Assembly: GCA_002256025.1 (NCBI GenBank)
Contig: NKIB01013019.1
Span: 1 to 64,000 of the forward strand
Direction: 5' to 3'
Source: Asterionella formosa
Lineage: Eukaryota
Length of the DNA stretch: 64,000 nucleotides
The notes beneath the pieces were generated by a model. That model was given only the letters and a program-made list of their open reading frames with translations. It searched no databases and was not told the origin of the DNA. Positions 19,343-60,668 of this stretch are shown piece by piece; within the stretch, counting starts at the first letter, position 1, and every line of letters begins with the position of its first letter. Position numbers and translations under genes: made by a program.

Positions 19343-22133
19343 TCAAAATGCAAGATTCCCAGTAAAAGTAATGGGTCCCAAACTGGTGTTTGACAAACTA
19401 TTCCGTGTTGTAATGGCTCGTTTCAAAGATTGCATGAGATTATCTTGAGATTTCACTCGACGTTGTCGTGTTTTGGATTCGATCCGCCTACTAAACTCCT
19501 TCATCATAGTTGCATGGGCACTTTGGTCAATAATATGTCGCTCTTCCGCCCAATCCAAAAGCTTAGCCATCTCTGTCTCTACACCACCACTCTCATCTGG
19601 TGAACGATGTAACATAATGGCAGGATCCTTCTTGCGTGTGACTCGAACTGTACTAGCGTCCTGTCTCCACGGTTCTCCATCGATCTGAACAGCAACTTTC
19701 TGTTTTATGATGATAGTAGCCTCACGACACTGGCAGAGGCGCTGAGCGTTGCTGAGACCAACACGAATTTGACCAAGATGAAAAGTTCCTCTGATGGAGA
19801 CTATATCGAGCACTCCATCTTGACAGCTGCTTGGCATGTCACAGGCTGTCACTCTTCCAAGCTGTATGTCGTTAGGTAAAGTGTCAGCAGAAGCTAAATT
19901 ATCCATGTTGTCAATTCGATCCAAAGTCTCTACAATCACATCTCTTGTGTACATAGATCTGCAAAGGTACAAGTGAAAGGAAAAGTGAGCTAAGTTGTTG
20001 AGTTGCCAGCAGAAAAAACAAAGCGACTCCAAACATACTCAAAGCTGCGGATCCGTGTTGGTACATTTCCACTTTTCGGCTTAAGTATGAAAGGATCAAT
20101 TGTTTCATCAAAGTTAAGTCTAGATGTGATCTTTGGCTTTGTCCCCATCCCCCACATGGGCACCCCACCAGCATAACTATCGATATTGAGCAATATGATG
20201 CCTTGAGAATCTTCCGGTAGTGGTACTTCAACTCCATCAGCAATTAACGTAATCTCATTTGGAAGATTTGCATGTGAGGCTTTTATGGCATCTTCTGCCC
20301 CAAATACTGCGTACCATGCTTTATTCACAATGCGAGAAAAGAACAGTTTGGGTCGAGATTCCCGCAGCATGTGCACTTGTAACGCGGCTTGGGCATCGAC
20401 TTTTTTGTTTTATCGTGTCAAATTTAAATCGTTAGATAGTGAAATTGACGGTAAATATGATGAATGTAATGACACTCACCTCCTACCCCCAGATAGTTGA
20501 AGAAACTCTTGCTCTCCAATATTCTACCCTTCTTGTTCTCAAGATTCATTTCCCAGCGATCCAGTAATGATATATAAGATTCGGCGACTTGCTCCAAAAT
20601 ACTAATCAATGATTCATTGTTATAGCCTCCTCCCCAACCATGCATTCTCGCCAAGTCGTTCCCAGTGCCCAAAGGAAGGATGGCGATTGGTGGGTTTCGA
20701 GTCAGGGTCATTCGTTCTAAAGCTGAAATGATCCAACTTACTGTACCATCGCCACCACAAACCAGGATGCGTAGTCGCGACATGACACAAAAAGACTGCA
20801 AAACCTTCTCAGGTCCACCGATTGCCAAATCCCAAATTTGAATAGGATTCAAAAGCCTGCGCAATTGCGTAATTAGGAGTTGACCTTGCTGCGGACCACT
20901 GCGTGAATTCACAAAAACCAACAGCGGTGTATCGTCAGTGTTCGCCAAGAACTCGTCGCCCAGAATATAGCCATTTCGATCTGGAACAGGCACTTCCACA
21001 TTCAGGCGACTGAGCGATTCTCTAGAATGGGCCGCATCAAAATATGACATGCCATCTGAAGATGAGGACGCTTCCCTTTGACCCACACACCGTAAAGGTG
21101 ATTTTTCCTCGAGAAAATGTACATTGTGTGATGCTGGTGAGGAGAATGGCGTCATGGGAGAAATTGGAGGTCGTCCAGGTGTGAAACGGTACCCATCTAG
21201 TGAATCTTTCTTTTTGATAGAATTGTCATTTCTTTGTCGCAAACCCAAAGGCACTTTCACACCCTTTTCTCCAACATCGGCTTCACCTAAGTCAGGGCTG
21301 GTCTCTGCGTTTTCATAGACGCTGATAGTTTGTTGGAGCATAATGGCTTCATCCTTCTTCTCTTTCTCTAAATTGTATTGTGGAGTAGTTGATCTAAAGG
21401 TTGCAGCGCTGGCAATGGAAGCGTCATCGTCGTCCTCAGGTTGCTCAATTTGAGGGCTCCTTTTGGATCGCATTTTCAGAATTACTTGCAGCCAATTGCA
21501 GATGGTTCTGAATGCACCGGCATAATCGTAACTGAGAATACTTCTCAACAAAAACAAAATATTTTCTGTGTAATACTGAAGTCTTCGCAATGGATGATCT
21601 TCTTCAAAATCTTCACTCTGGGGCACTTCCTTCCTTTTCGGCTTTATCTTTCCAATAACACGAGGCCTCTCGATGCGTTTGCATTCCGGTGGCAGTACAA
21701 GGCGGCGATAGGGAGAAATTCTGATTGTGTCATAGTGTTTCTCGAAAAATTCCTCTTCAGTCTCTTCCACTTCACAAATCACTCCTGTGCCCACCGTTAT
21801 ACTTGATGTGGTCGACCTCTGAAAACTCTCGATTTTATTTTCACCGATGCTTTCATTTCGAAGCTTTGAAATAGATGGAGATCTTGGATGCACTTGAATT
21901 CGTTCTCCCTTTTCTTTCCGCCAAAGTCGCCATTTCCAAATATCGGGGGAAAGGAGAAGGAAGCAAAAGAAGAAGAGCCATAGACTTACTGAAGCCTTCT
22001 CCCAGTCGAGCTCGCCACGAATGACATTCAATACTAGCGAAAAAGGCGACATCTCTTGTTGGCCCGTTTCTTCGTGTACATCCCGGAGGACTTCGGAAGC
22101 AGCAGCGTGTACAGTGTCCATACCAACACGCAT
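19343..22133 (-). CDS. Diacylglycerol kinase, 3 exons (22133-20480, 20399-20039, 19958-19343)
   Basis: DAGK catalytic motifs PLLVFVNSRSG, ILVCGGDGTVSW, ILPLGTGNDLAR. Accessory motifs FFNYLGVG|VDAQ, LNIDSYAGG, QDGVLDIV, VQIDGEPW. GT-AG introns 20479-20400 and 20038-19959 restore the frame. Confidence 0.92.
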
Positions 22134-33170: not shown

Positions 33171-33315
33171 CCATGTTCCATGCCACCAATTGATGTATAT
33201 CAACTGTCTGAGAACCTCACATCAACAAATTCCATCGAACGAAGTTTCTTACTTTGGTCATTAAACCAACCCCCCGTGACATCCGCAAGGAATGCTGAGC
33301 TGTGCAAAGGGGTCG

Positions 33316-33573
33316 TGTTAGGAAAAATGGACGTACAAGATACAGACGATGAATGGATTAAAGTACAAGGAAAGAAAAAGAAGAAAGAAGCCACGTCCAC
33401 AGTGAAGGCTACGTGGCTGAATGAGTAGGTATATATACATAGTTAACATGAGTTCTGCTCATTCTTTACTAATTATCGGGTTTACATCGATAAAGCCTCC
33501 CCTGTAGACTGTCTTCTGTCCATTGTTGTCTTACAGACACAATAGAATACAGTCCGAACTTGTGTATTTAACA
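33316..33573 (+). repeat. 5' LTR (258 bp)
   Basis: Runs TGTTAGG...TTTAACA. About 9 differences from the 3' LTR by manual comparison. TATA-like TATATATA at 33430 and initiator-like CTCATTC at 33458-33464. Confidence 0.97.
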
Positions 33574-33600
33574 TAATTAGTAAAGAAAAAGGCGAACACA

Positions 33601-36600
33601 ATGGGAGGCGGCAATACAGCAGCCGATGATGGTGGCGGCGGTGATGCCACACCAAAAGACAAGAAGGAAAGTGTTGGTGGCAAGAAGCTACCATATCGAT
33701 ACGGAATCCACGGAAACCAGAAGAATGCTGTTCCATGGCAGCCCAAGTTTGAAGGGAAGTGCGACGAGCTGAAAGGTCATGTCTACGATTGCTCAGATGC
33801 AAGACAGGCAGACTTGTTTATCAAGACAACAAAGGAGGTGGCTGAGTTTGTGGGGCGGACCTACAAGTATGGCAGTGACATCCGATTGGCAGTAGAAAAC
33901 CTGCAGGTGCCAAACATCGCTGATCCATATGACCCACCAGCAGGCGCATCCAGGACTCAGGAGCGCATTTGGGAAAAACAGGTAGATGAATATGTTAAAC
34001 GAACAACCTACATAAGCGAGAATATTAAGACCCTATATTCACTAGTCTGGGGCCAATGCACAGACATTATGAGGCAAAAAATCGAGGCCTTGCACGATTT
34101 CGAGGAGATGTCGACCAACGGTGATGGTCTTGCATTGCTCAAAGCAATCAAAAACACTGCTTTCAACTTCGAGGAGATGTCGACCAACGGTGATGGTCTT
34201 GCATTGCTCAAAGCAATCAAAAACACTGCTTTCAACTTCCAAAGCCAAAAGTACCTTCCACATTCACTGTATGAATCGACTCGGCGTTTCTACATGACGG
34301 TCCAAGGAAAGTATATGACAACCCAGGCTTATCTTGAACAGATTCAAAACATGATAGATGTCATTGGACATACAGGAGGAATGGTGGGCCATCAACCAGG
34401 AATCGAAAGAGCCATAATGAGGGAAAGGGGCATTGATCCAACAAACGCCACAACCATGCAACAAATGGAAATAGAGAAGGAGGCCTAGAACCGCTATTTG
34501 GCTGTTGCCTTCATGCTTGGTTCAGATAAGGCTAGGTTTGGTTGCCGCTTGAGAACTTGGAGAATGACTATCTCCAAGGCCAAAATAATTACCCAACATT
34601 CATCACTGCAGCCTATAATCTGCTTACTGATTGGAAACAAGACCCCCGCAATCTGATACGTACAAGTGGACCAGTCAGCGATGGAGTATTTTTACCAATG
34701 TAGACAGTGAAAATGGAGAACAAGACATTGCGCTTGCAAACAGTGGACACACTAAATCTGGACGAAATAAATTGTCACACATCACATGCCATAAATGTGG
34801 CAAACAGGGACATTTTGCTGACAAATGCGAAGAGGAGCAGCATCAGGAGCATCAAACTGGCTCCATGCTTTTGATGGCAGGTATAGAAAATGGAGAGTTC
34901 AATCATGACGTGCACTTCCAATTCCTGCAGTACACCAAGGAAGTATCATTGAAGCTTGATGAGGGCGGAAAAATCCCAAAGAGCTGGATCTTGTTAGACA
35001 ACCAGTCTACTGTTGATGTCTTCTATAATGCAAATCTACTCAGGAATATCAGAAAAGTTGAAAAACATATGGATATTCACTGTAATGCAGGTGTTACAAG
35101 CACTAACTTGGTCGGTGACTTGCCAGGATATGGGACAGTGTGGTACCATCCAAATGGGATTGCCAACATCTTTTCCCTGGCAAAAATGCAGGAACGTGGG
35201 TACCACATTAAATATGACAGCAAGGATGGAAATGAATTCACCATTCACAAACCCGACAGAAGCATGAGAGTGTTTAAACAATCAGATCGTTTTCTATGCT
35301 TCATGGACAGCAAGACGGCCAGCACTACAGAGGTCACACTGGTTAATACGGTAGACGATAACCGTTCTAACTACACCAACTGTGACTATTCTTGTGCAGT
35401 ATTAGCTCGTCAATTACAAAAGATCATAGGAAGGCCAAGTACTTGTACATTCACTAAAATTTACTACCAAACTGCCCAGTGACACAAAGGGACATCATGA
35501 TGGCAGAGGATATATTTGGTCCTGATGTGGGATCACTAAAAGGTAAAACCACTCGACGCGGTACTGATCATGTGGCAATCAATCTAATTGACATCCCAGC
35601 CAGCATCATGAATCAATATAAAAGTATCATCTTGGGAGGTGACATCATTTTTGTGAACAAAATACCATTCTTTGTGACCATGTCCCGCCACATCAAATTT
35701 GGGACAGCAGAAATGCTGCAAAACCAACAAAGCAAGACAATACTAAGGGCAATTAAACAAGTGAAAAGTGTCTATATGAAGAGGGGATTTAAGATTTCAA
35801 ATCAATCAGAGGTGACCTGGCAGAAATGCAAATCAATCTCAATACTGTTTCCAATGATGAACACGTCCCAGAAGTGTAAAGATACATTCATACCATCAAA
35901 GAGCATGCACGTTGTGTATATAGCATATTGCCGTTTCGGAGAATTCCAACAAGGATGATAATTGAAATGGTCTATCACAGTGTGTTCTGGCTTAACAGTT
36001 TCCCAGCAGAAGATGTAATATCTCCTACACTAAGCCCTTGTGCCATTGTGATTGGAACACTCATCGATTACAATAAGCACTGCAAACTTGAGTTTGGTAC
36101 ATATGTGCAAGTTCATGAAGAGCATGACAACTCCATGGCCACCAGAACCACAGGGGCAATCGCACTACGACCAACAGGAAATGAGCAAGGCGGTTACTAC
36201 TTTTACAGCCTCACTAGTGGTCGAGTTCTAAATCGGAACCATTGGACCGCAATACCTATGCCAGCAGAAGTAATTGATAGAATACATGTCCTCGCTCGCC
36301 GCAATACCGGCAATGGCACCCCTGAGCTGATGTTCACTGATCGTGATGGTGCTTCTCTCACCAACCCTGAGGATGACGATAGTGATGACGAATCCTATCA
36401 CCCTGATGAGGATGCCAATTCCAGTATTAATGAATACAATGATGACTATTACCTAACTTCCGATGCGGAAAACATCCATGATGCTCCCATCGCAGGAGTG
36501 TATGATGAAGAACATGAACAAGATGAAGAACACGAAGAAAAGAATGCCGAAATCGAGGAGGAACACGAACATTATGATGAAGAACACAATCAAAAAAAAG

Positions 36601-38550
36601 CCGAAATCGAGGAGGAAAATTTAGAAAACGAAATTGAGGACGAAAATTTTGAAGATAATATTAAAAATCTGGCCAGTAAAGAGGGGGAACAAAACACGTC
36701 ACCAGACAAGGAAATGGATGCGAAGTATGGGACCCGAAGCAGTGGATATGAACTACGACCCAGACAACCATGGGACTATAGTCACATGCATACAACTCTT
36801 GAAAATACAGTGATGACACAGCATAACATGAAAAAAGGGATTAAGCTCTTTGGTGATGCCGGAATTGATGCAGTACTAAAGGAAAAACAACAGCTACATG
36901 ACAGAAAGGTCCTAGAGCCAGTGAACGCCAAAGAGATGACAAATGAGGAAAATCAAGGTGCTCTGCAATAGTATTCAATGTTTCTAAAACAAAAGCGGAA
37001 TGGTGTCATAAAGAGACAGGGATGTGCCGATGGCCGAAAGCAGAGAGCATATACAAACAAGGAAAAGGCAAGTTCACCAACTGTGGCTATCGAATCAGTA
37101 CTGCTATCCTGTGTAATCGATGCAATGGAAGGTCGCGATGTTGCCACAATTGACATACCCAGGGCATTCATGCAGGCGGATATGGAGGATGTCGTTCACG
37201 TGAAGTTGGAAGGTAAAATGGCCGAACTCCTTGTGCGAATAGATCCCAAACTATACCGCAAACATGTGCAGATGCAAGGGGGTAAGCAGGTCTAATATGT
37301 GGAGCTAAAGAAAGCACTGCATGGAACTCTCAAAGCAGCGCTGTTTTTTTGGAAGAAACTCACAATGAAATTGAAACAATGGGGATTTGAGGTGAATCCA
37401 TACGATTGGTGTGTAATGAACAAGACAATTGATGGGACCCAATGCACAACATTATGGCATGTGGATGATCTAAAGATATCTCATGCCAAGCCAAATGTGG
37501 TTACCAAGGTAATCAAACAGTTGGAGGCGGAGTTTGGCATTGAGACACCCCTTGCAAAGACATGTGGAAAAGTTCATGAATACCTAAGCATGATTCTTGA
37601 TTTTACTACACCAGGAAAAGTCATGGTGGTGTCAATGAAGGATTTCATTGAACGGATGATAAACGAGCTACCAACAGACATTGATGGGGAAGCTGTGACT
37701 GCAGCAGCAAATCATCTCTTTGAAGTGAACGAAACAGACCCAATCAAGTTAACAAGGAACAATCCGCAATGTTTCATCATAACGTGGCCAAGCTGTTGTT
37801 TTTATGTAAACGTGCCCGCCCGGATATTCAGACTGCAGTGGCCTTTCTATGTACACGTGTTAAGGCTCCTGACACCGATGATTACAAAAAATTGACTCGG
37901 GTAATGAGGTATTTACGAGCAACCTTGAATATGCCACTAACACTGGAGGCAGAGAGTATGCAAATAGTCAAATGGTGGGTCGATGCTTCATTTGCTGTTC
38001 ACACAGACATGAAAAGTCACACTGGAGCTGTAATGAACCTAGGAAAAGGAGGAATATATGCCACATCAACCAGGCAAAGAATTAACACAAGAAGTTCCAT
38101 GGAAAGTGAGCTTGTAGGAGTCAACGATGCAATGCCATAGATATTGTGGACAATATTTCTTGGAAGCTCAAGGGTATGACGTTAAAGATTCAATTATATT
38201 CCAGGATAATCAGAGCGCAATACTGTTGGAAAAGAATGTCAAGGCATCGAGCAGCAAAAGAAATCGCCATATTAACATCAGATACTTTTTTGTTACTGAT
38301 CGTATTGAGGCAAAAGAGGTGTCAGTTCAATACTGCCCCACACAAGAGATGGTTTTAGAGCGTCCTTTTCCAGAAATTTAGAAACGAGATTATGAATGTT
38401 GATCCAGCGACTGTTAGCTTCCAGGATCACAGGAGTGTGTTAGGAAATATGGACATACAAGATACAGACGATGAATGGATTAAAGTACAAGGAAAGAAAA
38501 AGAAGAAAGAAGCCACGTCCACAGTGAAGGCTACGCGGCTGAATGAGTAG
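33601..38550 (+). pseudogene. Copia gag-pol, disrupted by stops, frameshifts and deletions
   Basis: ATG at 33601. Fragments 33601-34488, 34631-35482, 35479-35958, 35928-36971, 36978-37895, 37769-38140 and 38127-38381. The terminal frame ends at TAG 38548-38550. Confidence 0.9.
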
Positions 38551-38695
38551 GTATATATACATAGTTAACATGAGTTCTGCTCATTCTTTACTAATTATTC
38601 GGTTTGCATCGAAAAAGCCTCCCCTGTAGACTGTCTTCTGTCCATTGTTGTCTTACAGACACAATAGAAAACAGTCCGAACTTGTGGATTTAACA
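38438..38695 (+). repeat. 3' LTR (258 bp)
   Basis: Direct repeat of 33316-33573, preceded by CACAGGAGTG (short PPT-like sequence). Confidence 0.97.
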
Positions 38696-39186
38696 GGTTG
38701 TATTACATGCAGAGGAATCAGTGCAGCAGTGGGAATGGCCGCATCGAAAACAATGTTACCAAAAGGATTCGACATGCTAGGCAAGTCAATTTTTCTTCTC
38801 TGCTCCATCGCTCACCGTTGGTCATCAGCCTATCAATTGCTGCGCCAACAAACAACAATCAACAACACCAGTCCAAACCGCGCTTCAGAAAAACGGTGAA
38901 TTGTGGTAGTTACCGTACACCTTATGGTGTGGTACCTGGTACTGGTACCTTGTACCTCCATTCTGTACTGCCTCCGCTAGCCTGACGCATAGCATTGGTA
39001 ATCGTTCGTCGCCCTTTTCGTCGAGCTCCCCGTGTAGTTGGTGTCCACTGTTTCCATCGTAGCACGTGCGGGCATAAGAAATGTTTCAACATTTGTACAT
39101 TATTTTTTTTGTCGTCAATGAAAGTTTATTTTTTCTGACAAAACCTCCTGCAGTGTGACTCACGCTTAGATCGATCAACTTCGACG

Positions 39187-53433: not shown

Positions 53434-54563
53434 TTATTTAAGGTTCCTGCATTTGAACCCCTAGGCAAAAATGAAAAAAATATTGCTTAGTGTTGCCGAA
53501 ATTCCCTGGAACTAAGAACTTTTATGTGCTAATTTGAATATCAATGATTCAGTTTGAAATATTCAAATGAGTGGAAATTTGCGCGTACATGTATAGATTC
53601 CATTTCAAATGCATTAAATATGTATAAAAATAGATTCTACATCGCTGAATGTTTTAAATTGCTTTTCTACGGTATCAACAAATATGTTTCACATTCACGA
53701 CCCGTCGGCTCCGAATAATATTTGAAAGTGCATACTAACGGTAGTAACGTACTGGTAAGCGTGCACTACCTCGTACTATGACTAATGATGATCAGCTACC
53801 TGGTACCGGTAGGTCTACCCGGTACTCGGTATTCCTACTCCGTATGGATACCGGTATACGGGTAGGATCGGCCAACACCCAAGAAAATGCTTCATGTGTA
53901 TCCACTGTGGCCGGCGTGGGATTGCAAGACCTCGCAAACCGTGCCAATCGAACGGATGTAAGGATAACCAATCAGAATATGATTATTACAGCGGGCAATT
54001 ACATTGGCACTTTTTGTACACGAGATTTTACGAGCACAAATTTTAGCACAAGACTACCATTCCGATGATGACGTTTCGGCGATTAGTGATTCTGATTCCG
54101 ACGTTTTGGTGACCGTTGAAAAGGCCGATATCGTCGAATTTTTGGACGACGATAGCTCAACGTTGGCAGGGTTTGAAGAAGAGTTAAGTACATAGGTAAT
54201 CTTCATATAGCCCCAGAAGTTACCTTTCGGCGAGAAACTGCAGAAAGGAACTTCGGTTTTTTTACTAGGCCAAATAAACGAGTTAGCCCGGTAAAATCCA
54301 CTATTTTCAGCATAGTTAAAAAACCGAAGTTCCTTTCTGCAGTTTCTCGCCAGATCCTATATCCTGACGATATATAGCGTTGACCTATACCCCTACTTTG
54401 ATACATGACTGTATTTTAGCATGTTGAAAGGGTGTGTATTGGTGAAAGCTCCGTTTAGCGATATACATTTACGTTTTACTCGTAAGAAGTCAATGTTTGA
54501 CTACTCTGACTTAATACTATTTTTTTAACCCTACCTCGAGCTAAATGCAGGAACCTTAAATAA
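53434..54563. mobile_element. Nested MITE-like element with 21-bp inverted ends
   Basis: TTATTTAAGGTTCCTGCATTT (53434-53454) and AAATGCAGGAACCTTAAATAA (54543-54563) are exact reverse complements. Confidence 0.65.
54229..54351. repeat. Perfect 34-bp inverted repeat with a 55-nt spacer
   Basis: GGCGAGAAACTGCAGAAAGGAACTTCGGTTTTTT (54229-54262) and its reverse complement at 54318-54351. Confidence 0.95.
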
Positions 54564-59440: not shown

Positions 59441-60668
59441 CCTCATCATAGACAGAGTTGCTAGATTTTTGGCTGAATAGGAAATGTAGATAGTGATAGT
59501 AAGCCTTGTTGGATCCCCATCATCAGCATCCAAATTGCTTGCACAGCAACGAAATCTCCTTCCACATTCATCTTGGCTTTTTGCTATCTAAATAAAGTCT
59601 AAAATTATCGAATTTCAACAGAAGAGTAGATGCCATGGTGCTTCGCATATGCCTCTGGTATAGTAGCTAGAACAGTAGAATTTCCCCAATTCTCCTCCGA
59701 AATGGTCGCCATTTGTATCTGCCATGGTGGATTGTTGTTGCTTCATTGACAGCGATGATGATTACAAATTTTCACCATTTCTATTTAAGATAAAAACATA
59801 TTTCATCACGGTTTTGTTAATTTACATGGGATTTTACTATTGCCTATTTTTTAAATTTTGACGTATGCAATTCGATTTCTCAGAGCAGCCGATTTACGAA
59901 CTTTCTCAATCTAATGACTTGCTGGTAAGCGTTTCCTGTGTGTCACTTTTGATATTGGATTAGGGCACCCTGAAAGCGCTTACCAGCAAGTCTTTGGTTT
60001 CAGCGAGATCTCAGTCCGCTGCACCAAAAATGATACCCCTAATTTCTTGGAGCAGTCAAGTCAGAAGGAGAGATAGAGGATTAGTATACTAGTTTTCAGT
60101 CTGAATGTCAAAACTTGTTGTTAGTTGCGACATCTGAATTTTATTTGTACATGTCTCCATGTGTAGAAACCATTTCAACCAAGAGCAATATCACTTCTTA
60201 TGAACATAGTATGTTTTAAACTATGGAAAAGACAACGAAGATGACGTTTTGATCAACGGAAGTGGGCAATGCCAAAATCGCCATCATCCTGTCTCCTCAC
60301 CTAAGTAAATCTTTTCGTGGGTGTGCACATTTCAGGAGACAAGAAGAGCATTGGATTTACGGTACCAGGTACCAGGTACCAGGGGGTACCGATACTACAA
60401 AAGAGCCAGGCATGTGCGCGAACCCTACAAACGAGAGAGAGAACTAGATTCAGGAAATAAAGTATGGGCAATCTGGACGAGCGAAAGCGTCAAAGGCAAG
60501 TTGAAAGGACTCACTTTACATAAAGTAGATGAACGCAGCGAGGTCATATTGACAAGGCCTGATGATCCCACAAGGGATCATCTGTGATTGATTTTATGTG
60601 GGAACACAAGTACAGCAACACTCGGCTATCGAGCAAAAATCGAAGATTACACTGAAATAGTTTATGCT

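Follow-up and report, generated by a model that had tools for sequence, protein, structure and literature searches.

The window, the 64,000-nucleotide stretch of DNA analyzed here, contains a single LTR retrotransposon, which occupies positions 33316-38695. Its boundaries and coding remnant are as follows.

33311..33315, no strand: left target-site duplication GGTCG, matching 38696-38700 at 4/5 positions
33316..33573, + strand: 5' LTR, 258 nt, TGTTA...AACA, 96.5% identical to the 3' LTR
33601..38360, + strand: remnant of a gag-PR-IN-RT-RH polyprotein, in at least 7 frame segments
34099..34239, + strand: 69-nt tandem duplication in gag (34168-34239 repeats 34099-34170 exactly)
~34781-34828, + strand: zf-CCHC, below the Pfam cut-off in the window copy
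~35395-36340, + strand: IN region, located by its homology to relatives, for which a model matches retroviral integrases
~37002-37670, + strand: RVT_2, in fragments of 28.1 and 27.0 bits against a cut-off of 31.6 bits
38428..38437, + strand: polypurine-tract-like CACAGGAGTG, adjoining the 3' LTR
38438..38695, + strand: 3' LTR, 258 nt, with the primer arm repeated unchanged at 38584-38598
38696..38700, no strand: right target-site duplication GGTTG, against GGTCG on the left (4/5)

The gag ATG of the window copy is located at 33601. The copy is dead, as its polyprotein is decayed and interrupted by frameshifts, and it is because of this decay that its RVT_2 fragments score below the cut-off. 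The window maps colinearly onto P0002, the polyprotein of a relative. Related copies are present in sequencing runs, most of which are labelled as freshwater metagenomes: 3,676 contigs of run X1 align to the element, and the contigs of RNA run X15 span its whole internal region. One X15 contig skips exactly 69 nt at the gag duplication, and other copies therefore lack it; the duplication is private to the window copy or to a few copies. The original prediction described the element as 'diatom-type', and two lines of evidence agree with this description. The named homologues of the flanking diacylglycerol kinase gene (20424-22133, minus strand) are from diatoms only, and among the polyprotein relatives, which are ~1,600 residues long and come from metagenomes, the two that carry a species name are from Fragilaria crotonensis. 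A diatom host is thus supported by the sequence comparisons.

In three full-length relatives, RVT_2 scores 56.7-63.5 bits and a zinc knuckle is located ~700 residues upstream of it. The integrase of the clade was detected neither by Pfam rve nor by a PDB sequence profile, and a PDB sequence-profile search with the polyprotein alignment returned zinc knuckles only. A region ~190 residues upstream of RVT_2 in the relatives (alignment A3, approximately residues 541-870 of P0002) is clearly an integrase by its modeled fold: the model, built from 23 loci, has a pLDDT of 81.7, and every one of the best PDB hits is a retroviral integrase (E ~1e-8). As the integrase precedes an RVT_2-type RT, the domains are in Copia order. 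Together with the TG...CA LTRs and the 5-bp target-site duplication (4/5), the RVT_2 RT and the position of IN upstream of RT identify a Ty1/Copia element.

The 5' LTR end is complementary to the predicted start of the transcript

The features that concern priming are located in the 5' LTR and at its junction with the leader.

33430..33437, + strand: TATA-like TATATATA, 32 nt upstream of the primer arm; relatives have no conserved copy
33457..33463, + strand: initiator-like GCTCATT; the transcript is predicted to begin at 33461 (A) or 33462 (T)
33462..33476, + strand: putative self-primer TTCTTTACTAATTAT, corresponding to nt 1-15 of the predicted transcript, at the start of R
33573..33587, + strand: predicted primer-binding site (PBS) ATAATTAGTAAAGAA, the exact complement of 33462-33476, whose first base is the LTR terminal A

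The original prediction had the 5' LTR ending at 33573 with no TGG-type PBS after it, and drew attention to an exact 15-nt complementarity between a segment inside the LTR and the LTR end. Both claims are borne out. The LTRs form a 258-nt pair, a TGG directly 3' of the 5' LTR is absent, and TTCTTTACTAATTAT and ATAATTAGTAAAGAA are exact reverse complements over 15 nt, with mismatches at the neighboring positions on both sides. Because the 5' LTR ends at 33573, the 3' arm opens with the last A of the LTR, and in the window copy it stops 13 nt before the gag ATG. The 5' arm begins one base past the A of CTCATTC (A at 33461); this motif and the TATA-like sequence are both located where they had been reported, and the 3' LTR carries the primer segment unchanged, as had also been claimed. 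Among 20,000 shuffles of the LTR and leader that preserved dinucleotides, with complements counted when anchored at -2 to +5 of the LTR end, the longest complement was 12 nt (three shuffles) and none reached 15 nt. Across the 64-kb window, exact inverted repeats of at least 14 nt with a 40-135-nt loop number three, the primer/PBS pair among them. The complementarity in the window is real, and chance is excluded as its source.

No PBS of the TGGTANCAGAGC type (Met-type) was found near 33574-33600 when up to 2 mismatches were allowed, and a scan of the window and 12 loci found no tRNA genes. The arms are very A+T-rich (13/15 bases in the window). Poly(A)-tailed contigs, sought in order to place the R/U5 border, were not found. 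The one DNA run and three RNA runs compared with the element consist of assembled contigs, with no reported pile-up of ends; RNA contigs that extend upstream past the arm are to be expected, since 3' LTRs yield them, and carry no information on the transcript start.

Related elements share the primer/PBS signature

Eighteen polyproteins were aligned, and 79 metagenome loci were then gathered using protein patterns in RT. Since the loci were picked by polyprotein similarity alone, the selection was blind to the LTR and leader. The upstream regions were scanned for an inverted repeat without any assumption about its distance from the gag ATG and without a loop limit; in eight loci the helix is located farther upstream than 90 nt from the guessed gag ATG or has a 150-nt loop. 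An exact 14-17-nt inverted repeat is present in the same place in 25 of the 27 loci (window included) that have at least 450 nt upstream of the match to the gag N-terminus, as well as in six further loci that contain the LTR-leader junction and fall outside the 450-nt criterion. The signature is thus found in 31 elements, the window copy and 30 metagenome loci. Four of the 79 loci are too short upstream to be judged, and the remainder are pol fragments.

The borders of the two arms are fixed to one nucleotide. In 25 elements the first base of the 5' arm immediately follows the CA of (G)CTCA (TA in L038); the arm takes in the A of CTCA in five and starts one base later in one, and the 3' arm starts at the LTR terminal A in 22/31 elements and right after CAACA in 9/31. 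The loop between the arms measures 88-126 nt in 26 elements; four have a 52-nt loop and one has a loop of 150 nt. U3 ranges in length from 92 to 395 nt. None of the elements has a PBS that begins with TGG. The LTR ends TGTTG...CAACA are conserved in the relatives, and this start and end constitute 5-bp terminal inverted repeats. Immediately before the LTR start, 25/31 elements have the junction CAGGAGTG/TGTTG; it is nearly invariant and is short for a polypurine tract.

Conservation among the relatives separates the two parts of the start signal that the original prediction had proposed. The initiator-like CTCA is conserved and the TATA box shows no conservation, so it is the CTCA that carries the argument for the start site. 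In genes of P. tricornutum, the initiator-like element is TCAH(+1)W, in which +1 is the base after TCA (PMC4686930), and the (G)CTCA of 25/30 elements fits this pattern, as does that of L018 when judged by eye. The diatom CTCA/Y (the slash marks the predicted start) also resembles YCAYTYY, the initiator of oomycetes (PMC3599244).

Two loci depart from the common arrangement. L008 is the only locus that combines a long stretch upstream of gag (936 nt, L008:1-936) with the absence of the primer/PBS signature, and no LTR is recognizable in the contig; its leader may be longer than the contig. In L074, a 2.8-kb short derivative, a 14-nt hairpin with one mismatch and a 35-nt loop is located directly after GGCTCA (L074:1912-1975) and stands in place of the long-range helix, and this locus may represent a deleted or non-autonomous form.

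The two arms covary

The first 30 elements contain 24 distinct arm pairs. Arms match their own partners over 14-17 nt, as compared to a median of 5 nt when the partners are swapped, and only 8 of 838 swapped pairs match over 12 nt or more, all of them between close relatives. When the 26 long-loop elements were aligned with untuned MAFFT, the primer/PBS helix was the sole structure that RNAalifold predicted, and 14/14 of its aligned pairs show double changes that are compensatory. Bases pair in 94.4% of the cells of this helix versus 58.2% in partner shuffles, none of which was as high (0/500), and misalignment of rows by MAFFT accounts for the few cells that do not pair. The original prediction had named conservation of the complementarity among relatives, with covariation, as a test of self-priming, and the outcome of this test (31 elements, 14/14 pairs) supports that reading.

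Because the sequences are related, the shuffle statistics overstate independence, and the 31 elements are not independent trials. The concern about kinship is addressed by a control in which the registers were slid by 1-3 columns, where 39.6-51.4% of cells pair, and by compensations that are recent: L014 falls inside a group with a common arm, from which it differs by three changes, each of them compensated. In the RT tree the signature is present on all 31 rows, whose end branches measure up to 0.78 changes per site. G-U pairs are nearly missing from the helix, where they make up only 2 of 339 paired cells, both in MAFFT-misaligned rows, whereas 5 of 87 are G-U pairs in the internal U5 hairpin of the same RNAs.

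Predicted fold of the leader RNA

RNAs that begin at the arm and run 40 nt beyond the PBS were folded. The full helix is part of the unconstrained minimum free energy (MFE) structure of 16 of 18 elements; the window copy and L004 lack it. For the window RNA, the constrained fold with the helix is 0.8 kcal/mol worse than the free MFE structure. It was also observed that GCCTCCC (33495-33501) can pair with GGGAGGC (33604-33610) at the gag start codon, and this 7-bp pairing competes with the primer/PBS helix in the free MFE structure of the window RNA. Two hairpins are predicted inside the helix.

33478..33497, + strand: predicted hairpin 1, with a GGTTT-type stem, within the primer/PBS helix; present in the constrained and free folds and in most relatives
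33507..33554, + strand: predicted long hairpin 2, with a conserved tip (33522-33543) that contains a bulged T

In the predicted fold, the 3' strand of hairpin 2 ends ~6 nt before the PBS. The pairs of its tip covary in a subgroup of 12 sequences with a GTTGYYTTAYRGRCAC-like tip (the window, L001, L003-L006, L016, L020, L030, L031, L038 and L069). The tip of the U5 hairpin tolerates G-U pairs, and the L011 group has a different hairpin at this position. The conserved U5 hairpin may correspond to the U5-IR stem-loop required by Tf1.

A self-priming model and its alternatives

We consider it probable that this dead diatom Ty1/Copia copy belongs to a lineage that primes minus-strand DNA with its own RNA, as Tf1 does. 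In the scheme that we propose, in which a host tRNA would not be needed, transcription would start at the initiator-like CTCA/Y in the LTR (33461/33462), and the first 14-17 nt of the transcript (33462-33476 in the window) would fold back onto the site at the end of U5 (33573-33587), such that the arms close a predicted R-U5 domain of ~95 nt with two internal hairpins. By analogy with Tf1, the element's RNase H would cut past the paired stretch, and the freed 3' OH would be extended through U5 and R to yield strong-stop DNA. Plus-strand strong-stop synthesis would then copy the RNA primer, such that the PBS would be re-templated in every cycle; retroviral PBSs are re-copied from their tRNA each cycle in the same manner. 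Re-templating of the PBS from the primer would explain why the arms are perfect Watson-Crick partners despite fast drift between families.

Several features of the helix point to a primer/PBS pair and bear on whether it could instead be a purely structural element of the leader that serves packaging, dimerization, cap-proximal translation control or protection of the 5' end, while some other primer is used. Conserved covarying leader helices occur in many retroelements, and the further conserved hairpins enclosed by the helix suggest a larger functional RNA domain, as this explanation would have it. However, the inner end of the helix is within one nucleotide of the LTR end, where minus-strand synthesis must begin, and nothing in a structural role requires the helix to adjoin the final LTR base so closely, as it does in 31/31 elements. 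Nor does such a role require it to end exactly at the initiator-like CTCA, whereas an outer end at this position is what a transcript starting there would show. If each cycle copies the PBS anew from the primer, G-U pairs should be nearly absent, as they are; given that the U5 hairpin does contain them, their scarcity agrees better with templated copying than with selection acting on RNA pairing alone. Finally, no alternative PBS is visible: there is no TGG start, only 13 nt separate the helix from the gag ATG in the window, and a Met-type site is lacking. We therefore regard a purely structural role as unlikely.

The identity of the primer can be questioned in two other ways. The same complementarity could act in trans, the primer being either the 5' end of a second, co-packaged genomic RNA or a small LTR-derived RNA. 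Complementarity as such cannot separate cis from trans pairing, the arm also exists in the 3' LTR, and the family is abundant and present in RNA libraries; even so, this explanation seems quite improbable to us, since trans pairing would not constrain the distance between the arms, which is limited to 88-126, 52 and 150 nt, and since the conserved internal hairpins argue for an intramolecular fold. It is more improbable still, to the point of being hard to credit, that a host tRNA, a tRNA half or another host RNA matches 33574-33590 and is the true primer, with the LTR match being secondary. Copia elements elsewhere do use tRNA-Met 3' ends or half-tRNAs (PMC6317226), but the PBS of the present elements differs at most positions, occurring in 24 variants that each match their own LTR, and conserved host tRNAs cannot match all of them. 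This variation between families, combined with the match of each PBS to its own LTR, argues against a shared host tRNA primer, as do the lack of a TGG-initial PBS and the A+T content of the window arms.

Comparison with known systems

Self-priming is established for the Tf1/sushi group of Gypsy elements (PMC10085805), the only branch for which it has been demonstrated by experiment. As in Tf1, Tf2 and other members of this group, the PBS beside the 5' LTR of the diatom elements complements the start of the element's own mRNA (predicted here) rather than a tRNA, and the primer/PBS duplex is part of a structured 5' UTR, which is likewise a prediction in our case (PMC10085805). Tf1 requires a three-duplex 'pretzel' around its primer/PBS duplex, whereas the predicted diatom helix encloses two hairpins, making the two arrangements analogous and not identical (PMC10085805). 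Tf1/sushi elements are Ty3/Gypsy chromoviruses of S. pombe, other fungi and vertebrates, whereas the diatom elements belong to the Copia superfamily. Tf1/sushi membership, which would entail RT before IN and a chromodomain, is ruled out, as IN precedes an RVT_2 RT. The arms also differ, being 14-17 nt long in the diatom elements as compared to 11 nt in Tf1, and unlike Tf1, the pairing takes in the LTR terminal A in 22/31 diatom elements. Judged by sequence comparison, the element thus probably works like Tf1 without being a member of its group.

Within the Copia superfamily, the original prediction mentioned that self-priming had been proposed for a plant lineage, and the literature contains this proposal: the TAR lineage, to which Houba and Osr-1 belong, is predicted to prime itself (PMC6317226). 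The same prediction exists for Tcn1 (PMC6317226; PMC10085805). Compared by their published description, the TAR elements resemble the diatom elements in being Copia elements for which self-priming is predicted from sequence, but their hosts are land plants (PMC6317226). The CoDi (Copia from Diatoms) groups, among them Blackbeard and Surcouf of Phaeodactylum tricornutum, comprise diatom Copia elements that are similar in size (5.2-8 kb) and likewise have short TG...CA LTRs (PMC2806351). The main text of the paper that describes them does not mention tRNA, priming, polypurine or transcript starts, and its only 'PBS' is a buffer (PMC2806351). Among open-access papers and bioRxiv preprints, we found no description of self-priming in LTR elements of diatoms or other algae. 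The fungal GalEa Copia elements likewise lack a tRNA-type PBS and have a conserved structure at its position, the 'Conserved Hairpin Site' (PMC5445492). Their authors found no complement of the site in the LTR, so that the Tf1 model did not fit (PMC5445492), whereas in the diatom elements the LTR complement is exact and covarying.

It is conceivable, although we advance the idea only tentatively, that a deeply branching and widespread clade of diatom Copia elements, freshwater and marine, is independent of host tRNA, and that its primer/PBS pair is a family bar code rewritten from the RNA primer in each cycle. If true, such rewriting would reconcile perfect Watson-Crick matching with fast drift, and the terminal A of the LTR would be supplied through the primer in most families. 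Self-priming would be old, or would have evolved repeatedly, in both the Gypsy and Copia superfamilies, and the clade would be invisible to PBS-directed silencing based on tRNA fragments. That a second clade of Copia elements, from an unrelated eukaryotic supergroup, has the signature suggests that tRNA independence is commoner than annotation pipelines reveal, and the diatom signature is relevant to the proposal that early LTR elements were self-primed (PMC3601003).

There are also practical consequences. LTR annotation tools that seek a tRNA-type PBS will report 'no PBS' for these abundant diatom elements, and the signature, CTCA followed directly by the arm and, farther downstream, CAAC(A) followed by the reverse-complement arm, is a simple detector that also predicts the transcript start and the LTR end to a single nucleotide and serves as a family bar code. 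Diatom Copia elements are activated by stress and shape the genomes of their hosts (PMC2806351), and the mode of priming must be known for retrotransposition assays or studies of their control.

Other repeats

Two other inverted repeats were noticed in the window: an exact 34-nt repeat with a 55-nt loop (54229-54262 and 54318-54351), whose context is unrelated to the LTR element, and an exact 16-nt repeat with a 45-nt loop (59916-59931 and 59977-59992). Considered as further primer/PBS pairs, the repeats at 54229-54351 and 59916-59992 were rejected, as they lack the CTCA/CAACA context. In one of the metagenome loci, an array of 22-nt inverted repeats is located upstream of the element fragment (L033:179-505) and looks like a different repeat or element.
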